Positions 1,902-51,605 of a stretch of DNA of 55,853 bases are shown in pieces. Within the stretch, counting starts at the first letter, position 1, and every line of letters starts with the position of its first letter. The DNA comes from Candidatus Aphodosoma intestinipullorum (GTDB lineage: Bacteria; Bacteroidota; Bacteroidia; Bacteroidales; Paludibacteraceae): NCBI GenBank assembly GCA_017694515.1, contig JADIMV010000083.1:1-55853 (forward strand), written 5' to 3'. A model generated the notes under the pieces. The model was not told the DNA's origin, ran no database searches, and saw nothing but the letters and a program-made list of their open reading frames with translations. The translations under genes were made by a program, and so were the position numbers.

Positions 1902-4900
1902 ATGTCATTGAGAAAGATACGTTTCGCGCTTTGCGCCCTCCTCTTGTTGATGGGCGCGGCTGCTGCCTCTGCGCAGGTGAACATACAGATACCCTACCAG
2001 TGCAGCTTCGAAGACCCCGCCGAAAACGCTAACTGGGTACTTAACTCCGGGATAAACCCGCCCGCTGACCAGGCTCTGCATTTTGACCGCTGGTACATAG
2101 AGCGCGCCGCGCAGACTGATGGCCTTTACTCCCTCTTCATCTCCAACGACGGGGGACTTACCACTCAGTACGACGTGAAGTCTAACATCATAGTCGCGTA
2201 CAGGGAGATTGCCATGCCCGCCGGCAACTTCGAGTTCTCATTTGACTGGAAGAACAATGCCCCCGAGGACAAAGCCACATGCGGACTCTATGTCTGCCTC
2301 ATCCCCGCCAACATGTTCTCCGCGCCGCAGTCTGACCCCTCGAGCAGCACCATACAGCGCTGGCTCAGCTTCGCGCAGAGCATCGAGACGGAGGGTCAGT
2401 CCGAACCCTCTCCGCTCAAAGGCTCTCTCGACTGGAAGAACAGCTCCTTTACTCAGCAGTTCAACGGAACTGGCGAAACCTACTACCTCACCTTCGCTTG
2501 GCTGAACGAGGAGCGTACGGACACTCTGGCGAACTCCATAAGCGCCTGCGTTGACAACATACAGATAACAAGCAAGGCTTGTGCCAAACCTACTGATCTC
2601 ACCGTGGAGACCATGTGTGACACCATCAAGGTCTCTTGGGAGGGCATCTGCGACTGGTACGACCTCGAATACAAGCAGAGCGGCAGCTTGGAGTGGCGCA
2701 AGATCTCCCGCCTCCGTACCAACAGCCATATCCTCTCCGGTGTAGACGAAGGGGTATACGACTTCCGCGTGCGCGGCATCTGCTATGACTCTGTTTACAG
2801 TGCCTACGCCTATAAGAATAGCAATCTCCTCTTCTGCCCGGAGAATCATTGCATAAACTATGTCGACTTGCAGAACGCGGCAAACTGCTATGTCGGCACA
2901 TTCAAATCTTATGAACAGGACATTTTCACCCCTACAAAACCGGTGGATTTCGGGTCTGACGATGTCCGTAGCCGTCATGTGGTCAATATGGCGCGAAACC
3001 AGTTCGACCCCCGCACTAACTACGCGCTCCGCACTATACCCGAGGGCGAGATGGCATCTGTACGCCTCGGAAACTGGAATACCGGCGCGGAGATGGAGCG
3101 AATAGAATACACATATACCGTCGATTGCGATGTGGCCTCTATCCTTCTCCTCAAATATGCCATAGTCTTTGAAGACCCTGAGCACGTAAAAGAAGAGCAG
3201 CCGCACTTTGACCTCATTCTGCTTGACGAGGACGGCAATCAGATTGACCCCACTTGCGGTGCGGCAAACTTCTATGCCGATCGCCGTGCTAAGGGATGGA
3301 CGGCTATATCCACCGGTTTCGGCAGCACTATTGTATGGAAAGACTGGACCACCCTCGGCGTGAACCTCGAAGAGTACGACGGTCAGACCATCACCATACA
3401 GATTACCGCACGTGACTGTGCCGCCTCAGGCCACTACGGCTACGCCTATTTCACCCTCGACTGTGCCGAGGGTGAGATTGAGAGCCTCAGTTGTGGTGCG
3501 CTCGATTACATGACCGTGAAAGCCCCCGACGGCTTTAACTATCAGTGGTTCACTGAGTATGAATATGTCACTGACGCTAATGGCAATGTGATTGACAGCC
3601 TGCCCGGTAACGACAAGGGCACCACTCAGGAGATACAGATTGAGGCAAGCAACCGTGATGTCTACTACTGCCGCTGCTCGTTCAAGGACGAGAACCCCGA
3701 AAAGGCCGCATGCTACTTTGACCTCCACACCGTGATTGCACCTCGTGAGCCTTATGCCGATTTCCAGTGGGAGTGGGCGCCTGAGAACTGCCAGAACCGC
3801 GTGAAGTTCTACAACCGCAGCCACGTCCTGACTAAGGTGGACGGCAATATCGAACACACCTCCGAACCTACTCAGACCACATATTGGACGGTGAACGGTC
3901 AGATGGAACTTATGAACGATTTCATATACAATGTACCCCCCGAGGGTGACACCCTTGAAGTCTCTCTCTTGGCAGGTATATCTAACGATGAGTGTCAGGA
4001 CGACACGACACTGATAATCCCCATACCCTCCATACTCAGCGTCACCGACACCGTCGACTCCACCGTCTGTGAGGGTACGCCCGTCCAGTGGGGCAAGACC
4101 GTCACCTCACAGGCCGGATACATCCCCGACTCTGCCCTCAACATCGCGGGCTGTGACAGCGTCACAGTGCTCAACCTCAAAGTCATACCCGCCATCCCCG
4201 ACACAAAGATTGCTGATACCATATGCTATGGCGACTCTGTGTTGTTCAACGGTCGGTGGCTCAAGGAGACCGGCGAATACCCCCTTTGGGGTGAAACCTC
4301 CGCCGGGTGCGACAGCGTCGTCGTATTCGACCTCACAGTCAGGGACAAGGTTGAGTTCTCCTACGAGGTTACTGATGTGGCGGACAACCCCGGTTCGGGC
4401 GCGATAAGGATAACCGATGCCCCCAAGGGCTACACCTACACGCTCAACGGTGTCGAGGTCGCCCCGCTCACCCACCTCAACGGGGGCTACTATAACCTGA
4501 TTGTCTACGACTCCGTGGGATGCCCCAGCGAGGAGACAGAGATATTCATCAATCAGGACTGCTTGGAGTTCTCCCTCCTCGCCGACACACCCTATACCGT
4601 CTGCGGCGATGAGGACTCCATCGTTCTCCCGTGCTCCTTCTCCGCCGGTGCTCCCACCACATACTCCATCGCCTATGGCGAAAAGGCTCTTGCCGCAGGA
4701 TTTGTGGATTACAGGGACACCTTCGATGTGGACGAGATAACAATCCTCCTGCCTGACTCCTGTCGTCCGGACTACTACACCGCCGACCTCACAGTCAGGG
4801 ACATCATCTGTGAGGACACCGTGATTCCGCTCCGTTTCGTCGTCTACTATCCCTCATCTGTCGTGCGTCAAAAGTGGAACAATGTCCTTGCCGTGACCAA

Positions 4901-11500: not shown

Positions 11501-14210
11501 CTTCGAGGAAGAAGACTATTGGGGCGACTGGACGAGATACTCTCTCCCGGAGTGCTTCACTAACGGGCACAAGGATATAGCTCTCCCCATAACTGATGGG
11601 AATACTGCTCCGAGCTTGCCCTATGTATATCAGGGAGGTGCGCACACCGGCAGCTGGTCGCTCTATTTTGGTAAGGCTGATGGCGCATACATCGTCATGC
11701 CGGACATCGAGGGTGACATGAGCAACCTCCAGCTTACCTTCTGGATGCGCTGCTTCAAGGTAGACGGTCAGACAGGAAGGGTCTATAATGAAGTTCACCA
11801 CCCGCTGAAGAGCGACAGGGCAAACGCGCTGCGCATAGGTACTGTCACCGACATGCACGACATCTCCACATTCGAGGAGATTCGCCTCTGTGACTATCCC
11901 TATGACATGGTCTACATCGACTGGAACGTAACCATGGACACCGACCCGAACGCTCTCGAATACTGGGTGAAGTTCAACGTACCGCTCTCCGGTGCGAAAG
12001 GAAAATACATCACATTCCTCAGCGATGACTTCGTGGAGCCTTACCAGAACGTCTATATAGACGACGTGAAGATAGAGGCTCTGAACACTAAAGCCGCTCC
12101 GTATGAGTTGACGGTTAACGGTATACAGCCGACTTCGGCTCACGTTGACCTCAAGAGCGATGTCGGCAGCGCATGGACACTGGAAGTGGCCTCCGACAGG
12201 TCATTCTCCGAAGACTTGCAGACGGTTGACGCCACCCCCGCCGGAGCTGACCTGACAGGCCTTAGGCCCGGAACTGTCTACTACGTGCGCGCTAAGCAGA
12301 AAGGCGTTGACGGTGCGGAATATTCACACGTTGCATATTTCACTACCGCATACACCGTAAGCTTCAACGAGAACTTTGACGTGGCTCAGGCTATACCGCG
12401 TGACTGGATGACTATGAAAGGCGGTGTAACGCCGGACATGCTGTTCGATGGCTCGGGCAGGATAACCAGTAGTAGTGACGGCTTCGGCTGGAATGCTGGT
12501 AATGACACCATACTGTCGCACATGAGGGCATTGCATTTTAATATGACCGATGACGATATGCAGTCCATCTGGCTTGTCACTCCGCCCATATCGATAACCA
12601 CCGAGGGCGACCGTGCGCAGATGATGTTCGATTTCGGCATGACACAGGGACAGTCTTATGAAATGCCGGCCACGGACAGGGTTGACAACTCAAAGAACAA
12701 GTTCGCAATACTCATCTCTGACGACGGTGGCTCCACTTGGAAGAAAGAGAACTCTACCATCTGGACCAACGATCCGGAAGAACTGGCAGAGGGCGGCATC
12801 TATAAGTCCTTCAAGTCTCTGCCGCAAGGACTCTTCCACGGGATGACCTATGACCTCTCCAAGTTCAGGGGCAAGACCGTACAGATAGCCTTCTACAACT
12901 TCTCTGACGAGAACGCTTGCCTGACGTTCCATTTTGACGACATACACGTCAACAACGTCAAGGACATGCACATAGTCGACGACATCTGCGAGTTCGACGA
13001 CTATCACATGCACGGCTTCGACCTCCTCGACACCGAGTTGGACGAGGGGCTGAACTCATTCTCCCGTGAGGTATACACCACCACGGAAAAGCCCGACACC
13101 ATGTTCTCTCTCGACCTGACCATGAACAGGCTGGCCATAGAGAGCTACGATGCCCGCGTCTGCGAGAACGAGTTGCCCTACACCGACGACAACGGCTTCA
13201 GCCTCACGGAGGGCGGCACGGCGCGCCGTAAGGTGATGCAGGATGGATGCTATGTCATCAAGGAAGTACGCCTCACGGTTGACCCGATAAGGCGTGAGAT
13301 GTTCTTCGACACCATCTGTCAGGGAGCGGAGATTATATGGAACGGCATGAAGCTCGACCGTACCGGCACAACGGAGTTCAAGACCACATCCACCGTGACT
13401 GGCTGTGACTCCATCGCCGTGATGAACCTCAGGGTAACCGGCGCACTCCAGGGTGCTGACACCGTGACTATATGCCACGGCGAGACGTACAACTTCGGAA
13501 AGTTCGGCGATATAGCCGTCAGCGGCGACTATCTCGACACATTCCAGACCGGCGGATGTGACTCTGTCGTACAGCTCCACCTCATTGTACGCCCGCAGCT
13601 TGACACTATCATCAACGCCATAATCTGCCCGGGCGAACGCTACACGGAGAACGACTATGACCTCAACCGCACTGGCACATATTCCAAGACTGTGCCGTCA
13701 CCGGTTGGCGATTGCGACTCCACCGTGACGCTTAACCTCGTGGAGATTGTGCCGGACGACATTGTCGAGTTCGAGACCACGATAAAGGAGACCGACCTCC
13801 CGTTCACCTTCTTCACCAAGACATTCGACACGAGCTACAAGCCCGGCTCATACACCGAGGATGTCGAGGTATCGAAGGACGGTTGCAGCGGCACCATAAG
13901 ACTCACGCTTATCATCGAGGAAGGCGTGAAGCCGTATGTGCCGATGACCGAGGCCGACAACCGCGAGATGTATATCACGCCTAATCCGGTGAAGGTGGGC
14001 AGCGAGGTTACGCTGGACATAGACCTTACGGACGAGGAGCGTGAGGGCATGACTGTCAATGTCTACAACGCTGCTGGTGCGCTTGTGAAGAGCATGACGC
14101 CGGGTGCGGGTGACATTAAGGTCAACTGCTACTTCTCTCCGGGCATTTATGTCGTAAGGCTGACGACGGGTACGGGTCTGAACTATCAGGGCAAGATTAT
14201 CGTACAGTAA
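5550..14210 (+). CDS. Giant (2886 aa) T9SS-sorted surface or adhesin-like protein with alternating jelly-roll (choice-of-anchor-J/MAM-like) and FN3 modules
   Basis: Uninterrupted 8.6-kb ORF. Signal peptide MKRPSLLKVLLLAMLLPVSLVSWGQ. N-module ESFGDGIPEDWTQEHVVG...VIDNVIVMP. Eight FN3-like ends (e.g. TYYFYVQAECP..WSEEFSFRT, YYVWVRPVCGEG..WTAPIEFKS). Five C-terminal GCDS-type repeats. T9SS CTD ITPNPVKVGSEV...GIYVVRLTTGTGLNYQGKIIVQ. Confidence 0.93.
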   Translation: MKRPSLLKVLLLAMLLPVSLVSWGQDASASILINESFGDGIPEDWTQEHVVGSLDWVLDTQSDFPDGTREGDGARIAFRNTTGQTQGWRTKLVTPVLDLSLNKITNPILIITHAQEKMTGDFDTLTIWFKTAADGDWKELKKFDSYISFWQTDTIPLQQPGAYYQLAFEGSDNYGHGVVIDNVIVMPNPACMQPHNVQIWDLSNTSAQIFWLAGNNANGYNVKIDTVPLSREQLNAGVKASVVDEHISGSTSLFSTDKLETNTTYYFYVQAECPLDNSAWSEEFSFRTAVLRTLPFRETFDTLVTGYISRNPRWTFMSETDFLPFNNTNSDTYDLSAYSPDATVALLLAGDDYPGPIEANKYAYVASPRLVVDDLSKVQVSFYASYKSYGQMTSPYMSKIYIGGMTNTQDYNTFVKVDSVEFYNANSQREFTVSFIGHPEVAECKYVAFMSDFDASNFMAIDDVNVWIPGKCPEPANVKAMAMSGTDLRVTWNRSGAPGGNVVVSQTEVTDFSSLPQGATKKALEAGKDTVDFTVEEWTEYYVYVQNVAADGTVSGWSEAEWLRMPQSRTSPVKNVPVLFDFEDEERYLIDGTVFSEPEMVAGIQGFRNIAGSMPCVERSGIPVEKSSKNEVRVNVYNYPGHSYTVFPAIDGLAQCRVVLWAYYTSGRDYGMFEVGIMDDANDIHSFVPVDTLVLTSSWERYSVDLDSYSGNGKFLAFKALYKGTPDGNTFGFDNVRIEEIPQCIEAVNVQITPGETTAEVTWDAMAAATAWEVKASAEKIDYSELETVDQGKFLPVEVTGNKALVSGLIPGLNTYYVWVRPVCGEGTYGDWTAPIEFKSLCKAKESLPYVLDFEGYPTMDPYWEEYKEMPIPCVYFGTVTNTNGYVISPNITAYRTKQGSRSMEFDGSADFNWIAMPEMNADINDLQVSFWFAKSSGGSGPAHVRVGVMTDPLDSTTFETVGIYTSEEGYGVWTEVICPFTDYQGTGKHIAIMAHKADDSPQFFVDTIAVDAKLPCIKVSHPEALDITANTATLSWEKGDKESEWYVIVSTRTFSSEELEQIYADSYSGDGVAFSGFVDQNPYQAKDLAADTYYYFYVRSVCDKAEGVYGDWATRTGEFRTKCDAAIPGETFYDFESSGGEGAVPSCWSGNGDLVVGGDDYYHYPEAHSGSMIASIGSYSGGYLHTINISCEDIDEVQVSFWASAKTNVTERIPLEVGVLFNPNDISSYVAVDTVWLYPEFQFYTVKFDNYAGDAYGNRGKYIMFSNRDLAGAAECYIDDVSIDLKPDCAPADVVIDSIGEAGVEVKFVGGKAPYNYVVSSENIDPTQFNPDLSDIKVTSETEHLIDGLTPLTEYFLYVSSACGDGGYLWSAPIRFTTACLSVWPLPYEENFNKYNQYETSTGGLFVKVPDCWTTVFNGSSRPDFTVFNGNNRADGNCLLANMGGTDGEKEYIVLPGVDKPIEECQVEFRMQDSWWSRTAQARIVVGVVEDISNQATIDSTFVGLDTITQRSDIFTPCKVKMDNYQGEGGNIAILVYLDGDQYVYDLYLDDIVIRHTPPCPMPFDPKVKVYDDESITIEFDNSDGGSEWEVKCGVKGFDPSTASAVKFSSSVYTVTGLQPETLYDIYIRTLCPDVAEMTESSWVMISGRTSAPAVKDEDYPLEDDMSENKDDWKPTESEEIEMVNQWYIADNKEIDGRTGTMMYISEDGGTTCSYNEDENSAVIHRVMKFDVGRYTLSFNYNVTGYEDWGDPADYLRIAMMPEAYTIGFDDYGDMYLYDEYGTDYDMGPYGDDLPEDFVDLGSYYLSGGWQEGNIHIDIAPGNEGIFKIVFMWIVDGWSYPDATSPSAAIMDFSADYSPCVEPKNVRCDAVGVTTAGLSWTPMAKEEYTTYDVYVTGTTDLQTPPAADAEDAGMVLHEEFADTAASIDVLKENTPYIAFVRLKCGEGDYSPWSAPSAVFRTDCGPTEVDRLYSFEESEGHELYFEEEDYWGDWTRYSLPECFTNGHKDIALPITDGNTAPSLPYVYQGGAHTGSWSLYFGKADGAYIVMPDIEGDMSNLQLTFWMRCFKVDGQTGRVYNEVHHPLKSDRANALRIGTVTDMHDISTFEEIRLCDYPYDMVYIDWNVTMDTDPNALEYWVKFNVPLSGAKGKYITFLSDDFVEPYQNVYIDDVKIEALNTKAAPYELTVNGIQPTSAHVDLKSDVGSAWTLEVASDRSFSEDLQTVDATPAGADLTGLRPGTVYYVRAKQKGVDGAEYSHVAYFTTAYTVSFNENFDVAQAIPRDWMTMKGGVTPDMLFDGSGRITSSSDGFGWNAGNDTILSHMRALHFNMTDDDMQSIWLVTPPISITTEGDRAQMMFDFGMTQGQSYEMPATDRVDNSKNKFAILISDDGGSTWKKENSTIWTNDPEELAEGGIYKSFKSLPQGLFHGMTYDLSKFRGKTVQIAFYNFSDENACLTFHFDDIHVNNVKDMHIVDDICEFDDYHMHGFDLLDTELDEGLNSFSREVYTTTEKPDTMFSLDLTMNRLAIESYDARVCENELPYTDDNGFSLTEGGTARRKVMQDGCYVIKEVRLTVDPIRREMFFDTICQGAEIIWNGMKLDRTGTTEFKTTSTVTGCDSIAVMNLRVTGALQGADTVTICHGETYNFGKFGDIAVSGDYLDTFQTGGCDSVVQLHLIVRPQLDTIINAIICPGERYTENDYDLNRTGTYSKTVPSPVGDCDSTVTLNLVEIVPDDIVEFETTIKETDLPFTFFTKTFDTSYKPGSYTEDVEVSKDGCSGTIRLTLIIEEGVKPYVPMTEADNREMYITPNPVKVGSEVTLDIDLTDEEREGMTVNVYNAAGALVKSMTPGAGDIKVNCYFSPGIYVVRLTTGTGLNYQGKIIVQ

Positions 14211-14322
14211 AGGCCGGGTAAAAGATGCCGTTCGTGCAATGGGAGGTGCGTAGGATGCCGCCTCCCTGCACGGGGGCTGACGGAAAAGAGACAGGTCTTT
14301 TCTAAATAAATATCAGAAGTGT

Positions 14323-14362
14323 GCGGGTGCGTTTCCGAGAGGGAAGCGCACCCGCTTTTTTT
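14323..14362 (+). terminator. Rho-independent terminator after the left G gene
   Basis: GC-rich hairpin gcgggtgcgtttcc-gaga-gggaagcgcacccgc followed by a T7 run. Confidence 0.75.
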
Positions 14363-14484
14363 CATGTGTCTGTCCTTTCAACTCCGTAGTTCCTTTGAGA
14401 CCTCTGCAAAGGCTCGTTTTTCCCCGTTGTATCTTCTTGTTATACAATGGAAAGTTTTAAGTTTTGCAGAGGTTTTCCTTTGTG

Positions 14485-14560
14485 TAAATCAAAGTTAAAA
14501 ACACGTACTCTCGCCGAAGCCTCAGGCCAGCCTCTCCGAAGCCTCTCCCTAACCTCAGGC
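14485..14560 (+). repeat. Dispersed intergenic element, copy A
   Basis: Identical 20-nt core GTTAAAAACACGTACTCTCG at 14494..14513. CCGAAGC heptads follow at 14514 and 14536, with a degenerate middle unit GGCCAGC at 14525. Spacing is 11 nt. Confidence 0.8.
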
Positions 14561-14634: not shown

Positions 14635-14733
14635 CGGTTGGTCTGTACGGTTGCGCGGCGGTGTGCCGGTACAGGTTGACGTAATAACGTCATTGTGTTG
14701 ATACTCAAAATAATAACTAAAATAATAACTACT

Positions 14734-16749
14734 ATGGAAGTTGATTTTCAGGCCGACATACGTGCCGGAATTCCAGACGTTTTGCCACCGGCAAAACCCT
14801 ATGACCCGGAGATAAACCACGCTCCGAAACGTAAAGACATACTGACCGAGGAGGAAAAAGAGCTGGCTCTGCGCAATGCGTTGCGCTATTTCCCGAAGAA
14901 ACACCATGCCGAACTCGCACCGGAGTTTGCCGAGGAGCTGCGCCGCTACGGCCGCATCTATATGTACCGTCTCCGTCCGGACTACGAGATGAAGGCGCGT
15001 CATATCGACGAATATCCCCACCGTTCGCGTCAGGCTGCGGCAATCATGATGATGATAACGAACAATCTGGACCGTGCTGTCGCTCAGCATCCGCATGAAC
15101 TCATAACATACGGCGGAAACGGTGCGGTGTTCCAGAACTGGGCGCAGTACCGCCTCACGATGAAATATCTCTCAGAGATGACCGATGAACAGACACTCGT
15201 GATGTACTCCGGCCATCCGCTGGGCCTCTTCCCGAGCCACAAGGACGCGCCGAGGGTGATTGTGACAAACGGCATGGTCATTCCGAACTATTCGAAGCCT
15301 GACGACTGGGAGCGTTTCAACGCTCTGGGCGTTTCGCAGTACGGACAGATGACCGCCGGGTCGTATATGTACATAGGGCCGCAGGGCATTGTGCACGGCA
15401 CAACCATCACCGTGATGAACGCCGCCCGCAAGCACCTCAAACCGGGCGAGAAGGACTATCGCGGACAGATATTCGTCTCTGCCGGCCTCGGCGGAATGTC
15501 GGGTGCACAGCCTAAGGCCGGGGTGATAGCCGGAGTGGTGAGTGTCATTGCTGAAATCAACCCGAAAGCCGTGCATACGCGCCATTCGCAGGGTTGGGTG
15601 GATGAGGTCTACACTGATCTCGACAAGCTCATGCCGCGCATCCGTGAAGCGTCGAAGAACAAGGAGGCCGTGTCGCTCGCATATCAGGGCAACGTGGTCG
15701 ACTTGTGGGAACGCCTTGTGAAAGAGGACATCTACGTGAACCTCGGCTCTGACCAGACTTCGCTTCACAACCCGTGGGCGGGCGGCTATTACCCCGTGGG
15801 CTACTCTTACGAGGAGTCCAACCGCCTCATGGCCGAAGAGCCGGCGCGTTTCAAGGAGCTTGTGCAGGAGTCGTTGCGCCGTCAGGTAGCTGCCATCAAT
15901 AAGCTGACTGCCAAGGGTATGTACTTCTTCGACTACGGCAATGCCTTCCTGCTCGAGGCATCGCGTGCGGGTGCTGACGTGATGGGCGAGAACGGCAAGT
16001 TCCGCTATCCGTCATACGTGCAGGACATCATGGGTCCCATGTTCTTCGACTACGGTTTCGGCCCTTTCCGCTGGGTATGCACGTCGTGCAAGCCTGAGGA
16101 TTTGGCTGTGACGGACCGCATCGCGACACGCGTGCTCGAGGAGATACGTCAGCACGCTCCCGCAGAGATATGCGGACAGCTGGACGACAACATCCACTGG
16201 ATTAAGGAGGCGCAGAAGAACAAGCTCGTGGTAGGCTCGCAGGCTCGCATACTCTATGCCGATGCCGAAGGGCGCATGAAGATAGCGAAGGCGTTCAACG
16301 ACGCTATCGCCGCAGGCGAAATCTCAGCCCCTGTGGTTCTCGGACGTGACCATCACGATGTCTCCGGCACTGACTCGCCTTACCGCGAGACATCCAACAT
16401 ATACGACGGCTCTTCGTTCACTGCCGACATGGCCGTGCAGAACGTCATCGGCGACTCGTTCCGTGGCGCGACATGGGTTTCCATACACAACGGCGGCGGT
16501 GTAGGATGGGGTGAAGTCATCAACGGCGGCTTCGGTATGGTCATCGACGGCTCTGCCGACTCGGAGCGTCATATCAACGAGATGCTCCTGTGGGATGTGA
16601 ACAACGGCATAGCCCGCCGCTCATGGGCGCGCAACGAGGGCGCGATGTTCGCCATTCGCCGCGAGATGGAGCGCACTCCGGGTCTCGTCGTGACGATGCC
16701 TAACATCGTGGAGGACGACACGATAATCAAAAACGCCCTTAAACACTGA
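14734..16749 (+). CDS. hutU: Urocanate hydratase
   Basis: Length and motifs match the family (GLGGMSGAQPKA, YPSYVQDIMGPMFFDYGFGPFRW). ATG at 14734 (MEVDFQADIRAG...) is preferred over the TTG at 14695. Confidence 0.95.
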   Translation: MEVDFQADIRAGIPDVLPPAKPYDPEINHAPKRKDILTEEEKELALRNALRYFPKKHHAELAPEFAEELRRYGRIYMYRLRPDYEMKARHIDEYPHRSRQAAAIMMMITNNLDRAVAQHPHELITYGGNGAVFQNWAQYRLTMKYLSEMTDEQTLVMYSGHPLGLFPSHKDAPRVIVTNGMVIPNYSKPDDWERFNALGVSQYGQMTAGSYMYIGPQGIVHGTTITVMNAARKHLKPGEKDYRGQIFVSAGLGGMSGAQPKAGVIAGVVSVIAEINPKAVHTRHSQGWVDEVYTDLDKLMPRIREASKNKEAVSLAYQGNVVDLWERLVKEDIYVNLGSDQTSLHNPWAGGYYPVGYSYEESNRLMAEEPARFKELVQESLRRQVAAINKLTAKGMYFFDYGNAFLLEASRAGADVMGENGKFRYPSYVQDIMGPMFFDYGFGPFRWVCTSCKPEDLAVTDRIATRVLEEIRQHAPAEICGQLDDNIHWIKEAQKNKLVVGSQARILYADAEGRMKIAKAFNDAIAAGEISAPVVLGRDHHDVSGTDSPYRETSNIYDGSSFTADMAVQNVIGDSFRGATWVSIHNGGGVGWGEVINGGFGMVIDGSADSERHINEMLLWDVNNGIARRSWARNEGAMFAIRREMERTPGLVVTMPNIVEDDTIIKNALKH

Positions 16750-16780
16750 TTTCTTAACTGACTAATAACATATTACGGCA

Positions 16781-18265
16781 ATGAAAATACATGAAATATC
16801 ACCCGCTCATCTTACGATAGATGACATAAGGCGCATAGTCCGCGAGGGCTATCAGTTGAAACTTTCCGAGGAGTCCGTACGCCGCATACAGGCGTGCCGC
16901 GACTATCTCGACAACAAGATGAAGACGCAGAAAGAGCCTATCTACGGTGTCACCACCGGGTTCGGCTCGCTGTGCAACATCTCTGTTGGGGCTGATGAAC
17001 TGTCACAGCTACAGAAGAATCTCGTTATGTCCCATGCTTGCGGCACAGGCGACGAGGTAGACCGCGAGATAGTCAAGATAATCATCTTCCTCAAGATACA
17101 GTCGCTCCAGTATGGAGTCTCTGGTGTGCAGGTTGCAACAGTACAGCGTCTTGTAGATATGTTCAACAACGATGTGCTGCCGGTCATCTATCAGCTCGGT
17201 TCGCTCGGCGCATCGGGCGACCTTGCTCCGCTGGCGCACATGTCGCTGCCGTTGCTCGGTCTCGGCGAGGTGTGGTTCGACGGCAAGAAGCGTCCCGCCG
17301 CTGAGGTGAACAGACACTTTGGTTGGGAACCTATCACACTGAAATCTAAAGAGGGTCTTGCCCTGCTCAACGGCACACAGTTCATGGCCGCTCACGCTGT
17401 CTGGGCTCTCATCAAGGCCGATGAGATAAGCCGCGCTGCCGATACAATCGGTGCTGTGTCTCTCGACGCTTTCGACGGACGCATTGAGCCGTTCACCCAT
17501 GAGGTACACGCCGTACGCCCCCATAAGGGTCAGATAGAGACGGCTGCCCGTATGCGTGAGCTCCTTGCCGGTAGTGAGATAATCAAACAGCACAAGGCTC
17601 ATGTGCAGGATCCCTATTCGTTCCGCTGCATACCGCAGGTACACGGCGCGTCGAAGGATGCGATTGCTTACGTGCGTTCCGTGATAGAGACCGAAATCAA
17701 CTCCGCTACGGATAACCCGACGGTCATCCCGGAGAAAGATATGGTCATCTCGGCTGGAAACTTCCACGGCCAGCCGCTTGCCATCACTATGGATTTCCTC
17801 TCAATCGCGCTTGCCGAACTCGGCTCTATATCGGGACAGCGCATTAACCAGCTCATCAGCGGAAAGCGCGGCCTGCCGAGTTTCCTCGTGGCAAAGCCGG
17901 GGCTGAACAGTGGCTTTATGATACCGCAGTACGCTGCGGCATCCATTGTCAGCCAGAGCAAGCAGCTTTGTATGCCCGCATCGGTTGACTCCATCGAGTC
18001 GAGCCAGGGTCAGGAAGACCATGTGTCTATGGGTGCAAACGCTGCGACAAAACTCTGCCGCGTGGCTCTCAACACGGAACGCATACTTGGCATAGAGCTG
18101 TTCAACGCCGCTCAGGCTCTCGAGTTCCGCCGCCCGATGAAGTCATCGCCTGTGATTGAAAAACTCGTGGCTGAATACCGTAAGGCAGTGCCGTTCGTCG
18201 ATGTCGATCAGGTGATGTATCCGCACATCGAGGAGAGCATACAGTTCATACGCCGTAATTTCTAA
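16781..18265 (+). CDS. hutH: Histidine ammonia-lyase
   Basis: MIO-forming Ala-Ser-Gly in GSLGASGDLAPLAHM. Typical ~500-aa length, directly downstream of hutU. Confidence 0.95.
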   Translation: MKIHEISPAHLTIDDIRRIVREGYQLKLSEESVRRIQACRDYLDNKMKTQKEPIYGVTTGFGSLCNISVGADELSQLQKNLVMSHACGTGDEVDREIVKIIIFLKIQSLQYGVSGVQVATVQRLVDMFNNDVLPVIYQLGSLGASGDLAPLAHMSLPLLGLGEVWFDGKKRPAAEVNRHFGWEPITLKSKEGLALLNGTQFMAAHAVWALIKADEISRAADTIGAVSLDAFDGRIEPFTHEVHAVRPHKGQIETAARMRELLAGSEIIKQHKAHVQDPYSFRCIPQVHGASKDAIAYVRSVIETEINSATDNPTVIPEKDMVISAGNFHGQPLAITMDFLSIALAELGSISGQRINQLISGKRGLPSFLVAKPGLNSGFMIPQYAAASIVSQSKQLCMPASVDSIESSQGQEDHVSMGANAATKLCRVALNTERILGIELFNAAQALEFRRPMKSSPVIEKLVAEYRKAVPFVDVDQVMYPHIEESIQFIRRNF

Positions 18266-23490: not shown

Positions 23491-23498
23491 CAAAGTTA
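23491..23498 (-). promoter_or_regulatory. -7 box (TAACTTTG on the minus strand) upstream of metG
   Basis: Exact TAnnTTTG match about 105 nt upstream of the metG ATG. Confidence 0.4.
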
Positions 23499-23667
23499 CG
23501 GAAAAAAACTGAAACCTGCTGCCTTGACTGCACACCGATACCGTACAACCAAGGCAAATTTCCATGTAACTGTCTGAAAATAAAATGAAAACTTCTGTGC
23601 AAGATAACATTTTGAACTTGCGGATACATTGACCGCAGCTGTGGATTGCAGTACTCTCTACTTGTGC

Positions 23668-23750
23668 AAATTAAAGTTAAAAACACGTACTCTCGCCGAA
23701 GCTCCTCCGAAGCCCTGCCGAAGCCTCTCCCAATACTCACGCCATTTTCA
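23668..23750 (+). repeat. Dispersed intergenic element, copy B
   Basis: Core GTTAAAAACACGTACTCTCG at 23676..23695. Three CCGAAGC heptads at 23696, 23707 and 23718, phased at exactly 11 nt. Confidence 0.85.
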
Positions 23751-23919: not shown

Positions 23920-23927
23920 TAACTTTG
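23920..23927 (+). promoter_or_regulatory. -7 box (TAACTTTG) upstream of nagB
   Basis: Exact TAnnTTTG match 60 nt upstream of the ATG at 23987. Confidence 0.45.
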
Positions 23928-34686: not shown

Positions 34687-34811
34687 CAAGACTTCAGTCG
34701 TGTCGTCGGCATTGCCGCACCGCCTCCTATCTTCGTGAAACAAAGATAGCGAAAGTCGGAGACAATGGCAAATGCCCGTTTCCCCGCTTTGCTTATGGCA
34801 GTTCCACACTA

Positions 34812-34900
34812 TAAATTAAAGTTAAAAACACGTACTCTCGCCGAAGCTCCTCCGAAGGCTCCCCGAAGCGTCTGCCTATCCTCTCGCCATTCTCCTGCCA
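34812..34900 (+). repeat. Dispersed intergenic element, copy C
   Basis: Core GTTAAAAACACGTACTCTCG at 34821..34840. Heptads CCGAAGC / CCGAAGG / CCGAAGC at 34841, 34852 and 34863 (11-nt phase). It aligns with copy B for ~90 nt. Confidence 0.85.
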
Positions 34901-51204: not shown

Positions 51205-51265
51205 TGTAGCCTAAGGAGAGGTTGGCTGAAGAATAGCTCGAGAGTACGTGTTTTTAACTACTTTT
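51205..51265 (-). repeat. Dispersed intergenic element, copy D (degenerate, inverted)
   Basis: The reverse complement of 51239..51258 equals the 20-nt core GTTAAAAACACGTACTCTCG. The heptad array has decayed (agctattcttc / agccaacctct). Confidence 0.7.
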
Positions 51266-51605
51266 TAGATAGATTCATTAGCAGTACTGGAAGAAATGTA
51301 TGCATGGAAGAGGCTGGAGGTTACTATAAGAGAGGAAGGAACGCATGAGATATGCCAGAGAACGGTATTTTCCGGTATGGAGTGGAATTTGTGGACGAAA
51401 GCGTCAGGAAGAGTGAGGCTCCGAATGCGGTTCAGGATAATTTCTTATCGTTTTTCGATAAAAATATTTGGCGGTTCAGCGGAAAATACTTTACTTTGCA
51501 GTGTAAATTGCAATGGCTGTATTGCGTACCCGTGTCAGGCGACGTGTTGGATGTAGGGTCTGTGCGGTGTGATGCCGGCCATTGGGATTCAGGAGACAGT
51601 TGCAG

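Follow-up and report, generated by a model that had tools for sequence, protein, structure and literature searches.

What kind of element is repeated, letter for letter, in four intergenic regions of a single bacterial contig? The question is raised by the 55,853-nucleotide stretch of Candidatus Aphodosoma intestinipullorum DNA analysed here in full (contig JADIMV010000083.1 of assembly GCA_017694515.1, hereafter the window), in which a 20-nt sequence, GTTAAAAACACGTACTCTCG, is followed by short units placed every 11 nt. The window is contig C46 of a metagenome-assembled genome (MAG) of 2.44 Mb in 162 contigs, with 52.6% G+C, which we call G000; the organism is present in chicken-gut metagenomes. 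A preliminary description had proposed three possible natures for the repeat, namely a cis-regulatory or iteron array tied to promoters, the 5' end of a small RNA and an element resembling MITEs (miniature inverted-repeat transposable elements). The four sites are members of a family of short modular repeats, non-coding and specific to one clade. We consider that this family probably behaves as selfish DNA in its spread and turnover, like MITEs, like repetitive extragenic palindromic (REP) sequences and the bacterial interspersed mosaic elements (BIMEs) that they form, or like BrickBuilt elements.

The 20-mer, which we call the head, is present in four exact copies, A to D, at 14494-14513 (+), 23676-23695 (+), 34821-34840 (+) and 51239-51258 (-), as had been reported. 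Its presence is not expected by chance in the window (0 expected; 0 matches in 100 dinucleotide-preserving shuffles), and no further match was found there with up to three mismatches. The 30-mer common to the three plus-strand copies was confirmed, together with all the CCGAAGC and CCGAAGG positions at 11-nt spacing and the distances of 240 nt from copy A to hutU, whose identity is backed by Pfam families on identical products, and of 311 nt from copy B to the next gene. The 11-nt phase was borne out genome-wide, with an A in 90-97% of 194 copies at +24, +35 and +46. Two details had to be corrected. Copy D, described as a bare core, in fact carries a tail, AGCTATTCTTC AGCCAACCTCT CCTTAGGCTAC, made of another common unit type in the same register, and GGCCAGCCTCT, the second unit of copy A, which had been taken for a decayed one, belongs to a type that recurs; in the genome-wide counts of the first four units, GGCCAGC occurs 15 times and AGCCAGC 14 times.

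In the whole genome of G000 we counted 114 exact heads, 174 at up to one mismatch and 204 at up to three mismatches, the exact ones representing 56% of the heads. With a shorter core, AACACGTACTCTCG, and up to two mismatches allowed, 328 sites were obtained, which divide into 194 heads, preceded by GTTAAA, and 134 internal cores, mostly preceded by GA. The family makes up about 0.84% of the genome. We also observed that 38 contig ends lie at 300 nt or less from a core, against about 13 expected, indicating that the family helps to break the assembly.

The elements follow a common plan, with an AT-rich flank, the head, usually three to four units of 11 nt and an end unit, CCCTAWCC. In a position table built from the 194 copies, the flank is moderately conserved from -13 to -1 (consensus T.TAAATTAAG), the head is nearly invariant, and the periodic A of the tail, still present in 70% of the copies at +57, becomes weaker from +68 to +101. 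Within units 1 to 3, position 5 is an A in 93%, position 7 a C in 78% and position 10 a C in 74%, and the other positions vary; common unit types are CCGAAGCCCCT, AGCCAGCCCCT, GGCCAGCCCTC, CCTTACCCTCT, GGCTACCCTCT and AGGGAGACCTC. Neighbouring cores are separated by 44, 55, 66, 77, 88, 99, 121, 165, 176 or 352 nt, with few exceptions; these distances are multiples of 11 and thus place the whole family in one 11-nt register. Because of this 11-nt period, the element contains no reading frame. Over more than 100 nt to either side of the head, its strand is rich in C and poor in G (on the outward strand, G is 0.38-0.41 and C 0.14-0.16). The copies are short (about 75-105 nt), non-coding and numerous, as MITEs are in size and copy number.

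Three architectures were distinguished. The majority consists of a single head with its tail. In tandem arrays, a 44-nt unit, composed of the core and 28 nt, is repeated up to four times consecutively. Finally, 23 foldback elements have two inverted cores and measure 81 (7 copies), 92 (8), 103 (5), 125 or 147 nt, a series of 81 + 11k nt followed by 22 of them, with two outliers of 88 and 94 nt among those listed; as DNA they form hairpins with z values of -4.9 to -8.6, and the foldback elements of C99 and C157, two unrelated loci, are nearly identical across 103 nt. In the remaining heads, about 180, the tail ends in CCCTAWCC and the second inverted core is absent.

The distribution of the family was determined among 26 species of the genus. 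At up to three mismatches, GTTAAAAACACGTACTCTCG was found only in G000 (204 sites) and in G001 (278 sites), the MAG CALUOH01, 'uncultured Bacteroidales bacterium E19__bin91'. The latter is a sister species, with a HutU protein 97% identical and genes about 82-88% identical in DNA. Starting from the heads of G001, we observed that 17-18 of 20 syntenic intergenic regions also contain a head in G000, mostly in the same orientation. At the loci of copies A and B, the G001 head is kept at 18 of its 20 positions and the surrounding intergenic DNA is unalignable; at locus B, G001 has the head at the same place and, in addition, a second element of its own unit type. Indeed, copies of the G001 type are often a second element beside an older one, and the tails of the two species differ: at least two ACGGA units are found in 26 of 104 G001 copies versus none of 199 G000 copies, and at least two CCGAA units in 77 of 199 G000 copies versus 18 of 104 G001 copies. 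A comparison of filled and empty sites between the two genomes gave three candidates, which were either not empty or located in unalignable DNA. One segment stands apart: the element and its flanks at C158 ~16650-16800 in G000 and L029 ~4100-4300 in G001 are virtually identical (100% for one flank), which, compared with 82-88% for genes elsewhere, suggests either a recent exchange or a very conserved segment.

A related subfamily is present in G014 and G009, with the structure (A)ACACGTACCCTGC, then 4-11 × CCGAAGGCTGC, then CCGAAGGCTGA ACCTATYCC. It is likewise located upstream of promoters, for example that of prfC, and none of the four sites compared between G014 and G000 is common to both. 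A sequence-only model derived from both subfamilies gave matches in G000, G001, G014 (41) and G009 (3), next to no matches in the 22 remaining species of the genus, and none at all in 32 further genera of the family. G041 lacks the element even though it is closer to G000 than G009 is (91% versus 86% identity in HutU). The repeats are therefore patchily distributed, having expanded in certain lineages and been made anew in each of them, which is the behaviour of selfish repeated DNA and not that of a conserved regulon. The exact 20-mer was found in no paper in the literature. In G014, at L069 and L075-L087, we also noted that the reverse strand of the unit, (GCAGCCTTCGG)n, can be read as successive GCC-UUCG-GGC mini-hairpins that recur every 11 nt; as the units of G000 have no such pairing, it is probably incidental.

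We then considered the position of the elements relative to genes, on our own crude set of gene calls (1,666 genes, 85% coding). A head is present in 82 of the 158 divergent intergenic regions (52%), in 60 of the 335 co-directional regions of at least 150 nt (18%) and in only 5 of the 69 convergent regions of at least 150 nt (7%); five heads fall within called genes. In the co-directional regions the two orientations are about equally represented (36 versus 29). The exact Bacteroidetes -7 box, TAnnTTTG, lies between the element and the start codon for about 70% of the facing genes, compared with 56% of all the genes whose upstream DNA measures 150 nt or more. Element and box are separated by distances spread between 25 and 250 nt, on either side and in both orientations. 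The elements thus occupy, almost exclusively, untranscribed DNA upstream of promoters, at a spacing that is not fixed. An iteron or regulator array at particular promoters, with a constant position and conservation between species, is not what these data describe, as the spacing is free, a copy is present in half of the divergent regions and 22 of the 26 species have no element.

The orientation of the elements is related to GC skew. Their C-rich strand coincides with the strand of the flanking coding DNA that is locally C-rich for 122 of 187 heads (±8 kb; p = 4e-5), and for 107 of 153 heads (p = 9e-7) where |skew| exceeds 0.03. This link could reflect a replication-strand bias, hinting at a single-strand mechanism linked to the fork, or the composition of the gene strand.

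Several other candidates were discarded. An outward promoter in the AT-rich flank is not a general role of the element: TAnnTTTG is present in only 11 of 204 flanks, and the facing start codon is at a median distance of 228 nt. An invertible promoter such as those of B. fragilis does not fit either, the inverted cores being 55-121 nt apart and enclosing units instead of a -7 box. In the same way, the 44-nt arrays are not CRISPR-like, their 'spacers' resembling one another. Finally, the idea that the heads are the ends of a composite transposon or of an insertion sequence (IS) was rejected: nothing transposase-like was found between inverted heads in G000 and in about 0.44 Mb of G001, and the 14-mer matches in giant genes are chance matches with three mismatches.

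An all-against-all comparison of the G000 proteins revealed one multi-copy family, hereafter gene X. Its product, of about 175-200 aa, has a conserved N-terminal part of 105 aa and a helical tail rich in Arg and Glu, and is very basic. There are 9-10 copies in G000 and about 16 in G001; other species gave only weak matches of about 110 aa, and G014 and G009 gave none. The close copies in G000 are C123:296-901(-), C134:1034-1582(-), C154:1671-2198(-), C69:11140-11706(+) and C11:2-466(-), and the diverged ones C109:10025-10330, C142:2263-2565, C124:356-664 and C139:2-235. The product belongs to no Pfam or NCBIfam family, and its 47 homologues among 5.8 billion protein clusters are unnamed. With a structure model of mean pLDDT 80, Foldseek returned no significant match and no recognised DNA-binding fold (best E 0.34). 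Codons with a single change among 12 paralogues gave 1736 synonymous versus 663 non-synonymous changes in frame, the two remaining frames yielding 521/2155 and 300/2289; this synonymous excess in frame, reversed out of frame, shows that gene X is truly coding and under purifying selection. In addition, RNA contigs of run X25 cover gene X up to about 30 nt from the head. In G016, G015, G020, G003 and other species we noted one to six open reading frames of about 105-115 aa with weak similarity (about 30% identity) to the N-terminal part, which may represent an older family from which gene X expanded.

A core is located 120-205 nt upstream of the gene X start in all five close copies of G000 and in all seven G001 copies for which upstream sequence is available. 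The G000 heads are oriented towards the gene, with a TAATTTTG box at 42-51 nt from the head; no conserved second end was found downstream of gene X. This link is too regular for chance, and it may have arisen by duplication of one unit comprising the element, the promoter and the gene. Near several gene X copies we also observed a second dispersed repeat, GTTATGGGGGCTTTGCCCCCTATRCCCCCAGTTACTTTCTT...AAGAAAGTAAC, at C154 ~2560-2640, C69 ~11730-11900 and C134 ~990-1010; the C154 copy is upstream of gene X.

Could the elements act as RNA, that is as small RNAs, 5' leaders or terminators? Some RNA-run contigs of 0.4-1.7 kb contain heads from other loci, and the foldback copies would make strong hairpins. 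However, the window has no Rfam match at gathering score, and on neither strand is the folding of copies A-D better than that of shuffled sequences (z -0.84 to +1.50). Moreover, the copies are upstream of -7 boxes and have no preferred orientation towards genes. We examined copies A-C in the contigs of two metatranscriptomes that hold the organism. At locus A the RNA contigs end at 14390 and restart at 14683-14688, and at loci B and C the depth on the unique flanks is zero and the adjacent genes are covered; copies A-C are thus absent from the RNA contigs of their own loci. Relative to one gene, the summed depth of the heads is about 10-15 times in RNA and about 184 times in a DNA run, which indicates that some copies elsewhere are transcribed and most are not. 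This explanation, which includes the small-RNA 5' end first put forward, is in our opinion highly improbable. Beside copy A, a contig of the metatranscriptome run X24 joins 14390 to 14483 and omits the 92 nt directly before the AT-rich flank; either a strain has lost this DNA up to the border of the element, or the contig was assembled by way of another copy. Quite unlikely as well, though less so, is the idea that 11-nt minisatellites arise and are reshaped in situ in the DNA upstream of promoters, under a general property of Bacteroidales chromosomes such as a helical-period constraint or replication slippage, and are then made alike by gene conversion. It would agree with the strict register of the whole family, with the skewed strand composition, which extends beyond 100 nt from the head in both directions, and with the orientation along coding GC skew (107/153 copies). 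Nevertheless, independent origins cannot produce the same exact 20-nt head at 114 sites; some template must have been copied or used for conversion whatever the explanation, and this idea is further contradicted by the nearly identical 103-nt foldbacks at the unrelated loci C99 and C157 and by the lack of the family in most species of the genus.

The main rival is an array of head and 11-nt units on which a clade-specific DNA-binding protein would dock, for example a nucleoid-associated or insulator-like one and possibly the product of gene X. The head would be the high-affinity site and the units would each offer one contact per helical turn; the arrays, which may have begun as selfish DNA, would be kept upstream of promoters by selection for chromosome organisation or generic promoter insulation. 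Consistent with this are the heads conserved at orthologous sites between unalignable flanks, the 56% of G000 heads that are exact, the A at unit position 5 (93%) and the frequent C at positions 7 and 10 across differing unit types, the sequences ACACGTAC and CCGAAG common to two subfamilies from species about 86% identical in HutU, the enrichment in promoter-bearing intergenic regions, and the core found upstream of every close copy of a gene that is coding, very basic in its product and covered by RNA. On the other hand, 22 of the 26 species do without the element and the tail units of sister species differ; G014 and G009 possess arrays and no gene X homologue; neither the spacing to promoters nor the orientation is fixed; the gene X product has no recognised DNA-binding fold or Pfam or NCBIfam family; and the association with gene X could come from duplication of a single element-promoter-gene unit. 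We regard docking as a possible explanation, clearly less probable than selfish spread. A bolder version, which we hold to be unlikely, is that the arrays and gene X form a new mobile or chromosome-organising system, in which the small, helical, Arg-rich protein, of no known family, multi-copy and always preceded by an element, would be the factor that recognises the head and causes the arrays to be copied or converted, with a strand bias, at the replication fork. If true, it would account for the GC-skew orientation bias, for the species-specific tails and for the lack of a known transposase.

We therefore return to spread as selfish DNA, which we consider the best explanation. The elements would spread or be homogenised through the head, the part presumably recognised by a trans-acting protein that copies or homogenises them. 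The tail would gain, lose and swap one 11-nt unit at a time, by slippage or gene conversion; such changes by whole units would keep the distances at multiples of 11, so that selection on helical phase is not needed. Copies would survive only where they are not transcribed. They would have no gene-specific regulatory role, any effect on a neighbouring promoter being generic, through DNA shape, protein occupancy or supercoiling. The MITE-like option of the preliminary description is accordingly the one best supported, by the hundreds of copies, the patchy distribution restricted to a clade, the tail differences between sister species and the 23 copies with terminal inverted cores. A plain MITE is not supported, as there is mostly one head per copy and neither target-site duplications nor a transposase partner came to light.

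Several observations weigh against this explanation. No clean empty site was obtained, so that mobility is an inference. Copy A is fixed, with the same number of units in this assembly and in five further assemblies of the species, six in all, and thus no strain polymorphism was detected in them; Logan contigs break inside the head, and variants in unit number are not visible in them. The heads are near perfect at sites common to two species whose intergenic flanks no longer align, and one A per 11-nt unit is conserved at 93% among variable neighbours; for this conservation, selection for protein binding fits as well as neutral selfish DNA, or better. An orientation that follows coding GC skew is not predicted by a plain cut-and-paste MITE. 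At the 23 foldback copies, inspection of the flanks revealed no target-site duplication; both flanks of the GTTAAAAAC ends are AT-rich in the inverted sense and resemble an imperfect extension of the inverted repeat. The search for a mobilising partner was also negative. The Y1 transposase (RAYT/IS200; Y1_Tnp, PF01797) gave 0 matches in G000 and G001, and Y1 genes are present in 11 other species of the genus, mostly without the element. Where inverted heads are separated by 0.2-6 kb, no transposase-like open reading frame was found between them, either in G000 or in about 0.44 Mb of the 2.4-Mb G001, nor was a parent IS with the same ends found in the draft G000 and part of G001; both genomes are draft MAGs, so the absence of a transposase or of a parent IS is not proven. 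An origin from a phage or plasmid was not supported, since viral contigs do not contain the 20-mer and no plasmid matched the consensus element.

The four elements of the window illustrate the plan described above. Copy A (14483..14557, +) has its flank at 14483-14493 (tgtaaatcaaa), its head at 14494-14513, units CCGAAGCCTCA (14514), GGCCAGCCTCT (14525) and CCGAAGCCTCT (14536), and end unit CCCTAACCTCA (14547); its neighbours are, on one side, the terminator hairpin (14321-14362) of the giant gene located upstream and, on the other, the -7 box of hutU, TATCTTTG (14627-34). Copy B (23665..23739, +) comprises a flank (23665-23675), the head (23676-23695), units CCGAAGCTCCT (23696), CCGAAGCCCTG (23707) and CCGAAGCCTCT (23718), and end unit CCCAATACTCA (23729), and is about midway between divergent -7 boxes at 23491-23498 (-, metG side) and 23920-23927 (+). 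In copy C (34810..34884, +), the flank (34810-34820) and the head (34821-34840) are followed by units CCGAAGCTCCT (34841), CCGAAGGCTCC (34852) and CCGAAGCGTCT (34863) and by end unit GCCTATCCTCT (34874); this element and its flanks align throughout with G001:C46 at 2978. Copy D (51206..51269) is on the minus strand, with its flank at 51259-51269, its head at 51239-51258 and units AGCTATTCTTC (51238-51228), AGCCAACCTCT (51227-51217) and CCTTAGGCTAC (51216-51206). Its tail subtype is unlike that of copies A-C and its register is unchanged; the AGCTA, AGCCA and CCTTA types are common genome-wide.

A family that occupies one in two divergent promoter regions in a bacterium common in the chicken gut, and breaks its assemblies at many contig ends, should be taken into account in the binning, assembly and promoter prediction of these MAGs, and its head is a handy marker for the clade. 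With a perfect 20-nt head, tails re-made in each species and no recognisable transposase, it is also a good test case for selection versus conversion and for how short repeats spread, and gene X provides a concrete candidate for the partner.

How does this family compare with known systems? Classical MITEs, such as Correia of Neisseria and RUP of pneumococcus, are likewise small, non-coding and multi-copy, with lineage-specific expansion; as to terminal inverted repeats, a subset of the G000 family (23 copies) has two inverted cores and the remainder a single head. Unlike them, about 90% of the G000 copies are one-headed, the interior is an 11-nt minisatellite, and target-site duplication was not seen and a parent IS not found for this family. 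REP, BIME and REPIN elements of Proteobacteria, with their RAYT (Y1) transposases, are similar in being high-copy, short, extragenic repeats, found singly, in regular clusters or as inverted doublets measuring about 80-110 nt, with a species-specific sequence held at orthologous sites in close relatives. However, the G000 head is not palindromic, and single-head copies do not fold on their own. REPs are mostly located in transcribed 3' regions, whereas the G000 family is upstream of promoters and rare between convergent genes. A REPIN-RAYT system was rejected, as it needs a palindromic unit, which the G000 copies lack, and a RAYT (Y1) gene, of which no match was obtained in G000 or G001. BOX elements of Streptococcus pneumoniae and the heptamer arrays (STRR) of cyanobacteria are dispersed modular repeats too, with a conserved end module and variable short tandem units; BOX elements are transcribed and fold. 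The G000 family is unrelated to them in sequence, unit length and host.

Together with REP/BIME, the known system that comes nearest, and the nearest of all, is BrickBuilt, a minisatellite MITE found in Porphyromonas gingivalis. It is intergenic and consists of a leader, 23-nt repeats without spacers (up to 22.8 per copy) and a tail (Klein et al. 2015, PMC4596501). Leaders and tails reach about 300 nt, the 19 copies amount to 0.44% of the genome, promoter activity has been shown and no autonomous partner is known (PMC4596501). Compared by description, both families have a leader, an imperfect tandem repeat without spacers and of variable number, and a tail; both are strictly intergenic and species-restricted in a Bacteroidales host, and both have some copies lacking one end. 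The G000 family differs by its 11-nt units, usually three to four, its 20-nt head and its 200-330 copies. It is thus an undescribed family of modular repeats within a known kind, the dispersed modular intergenic repeats.

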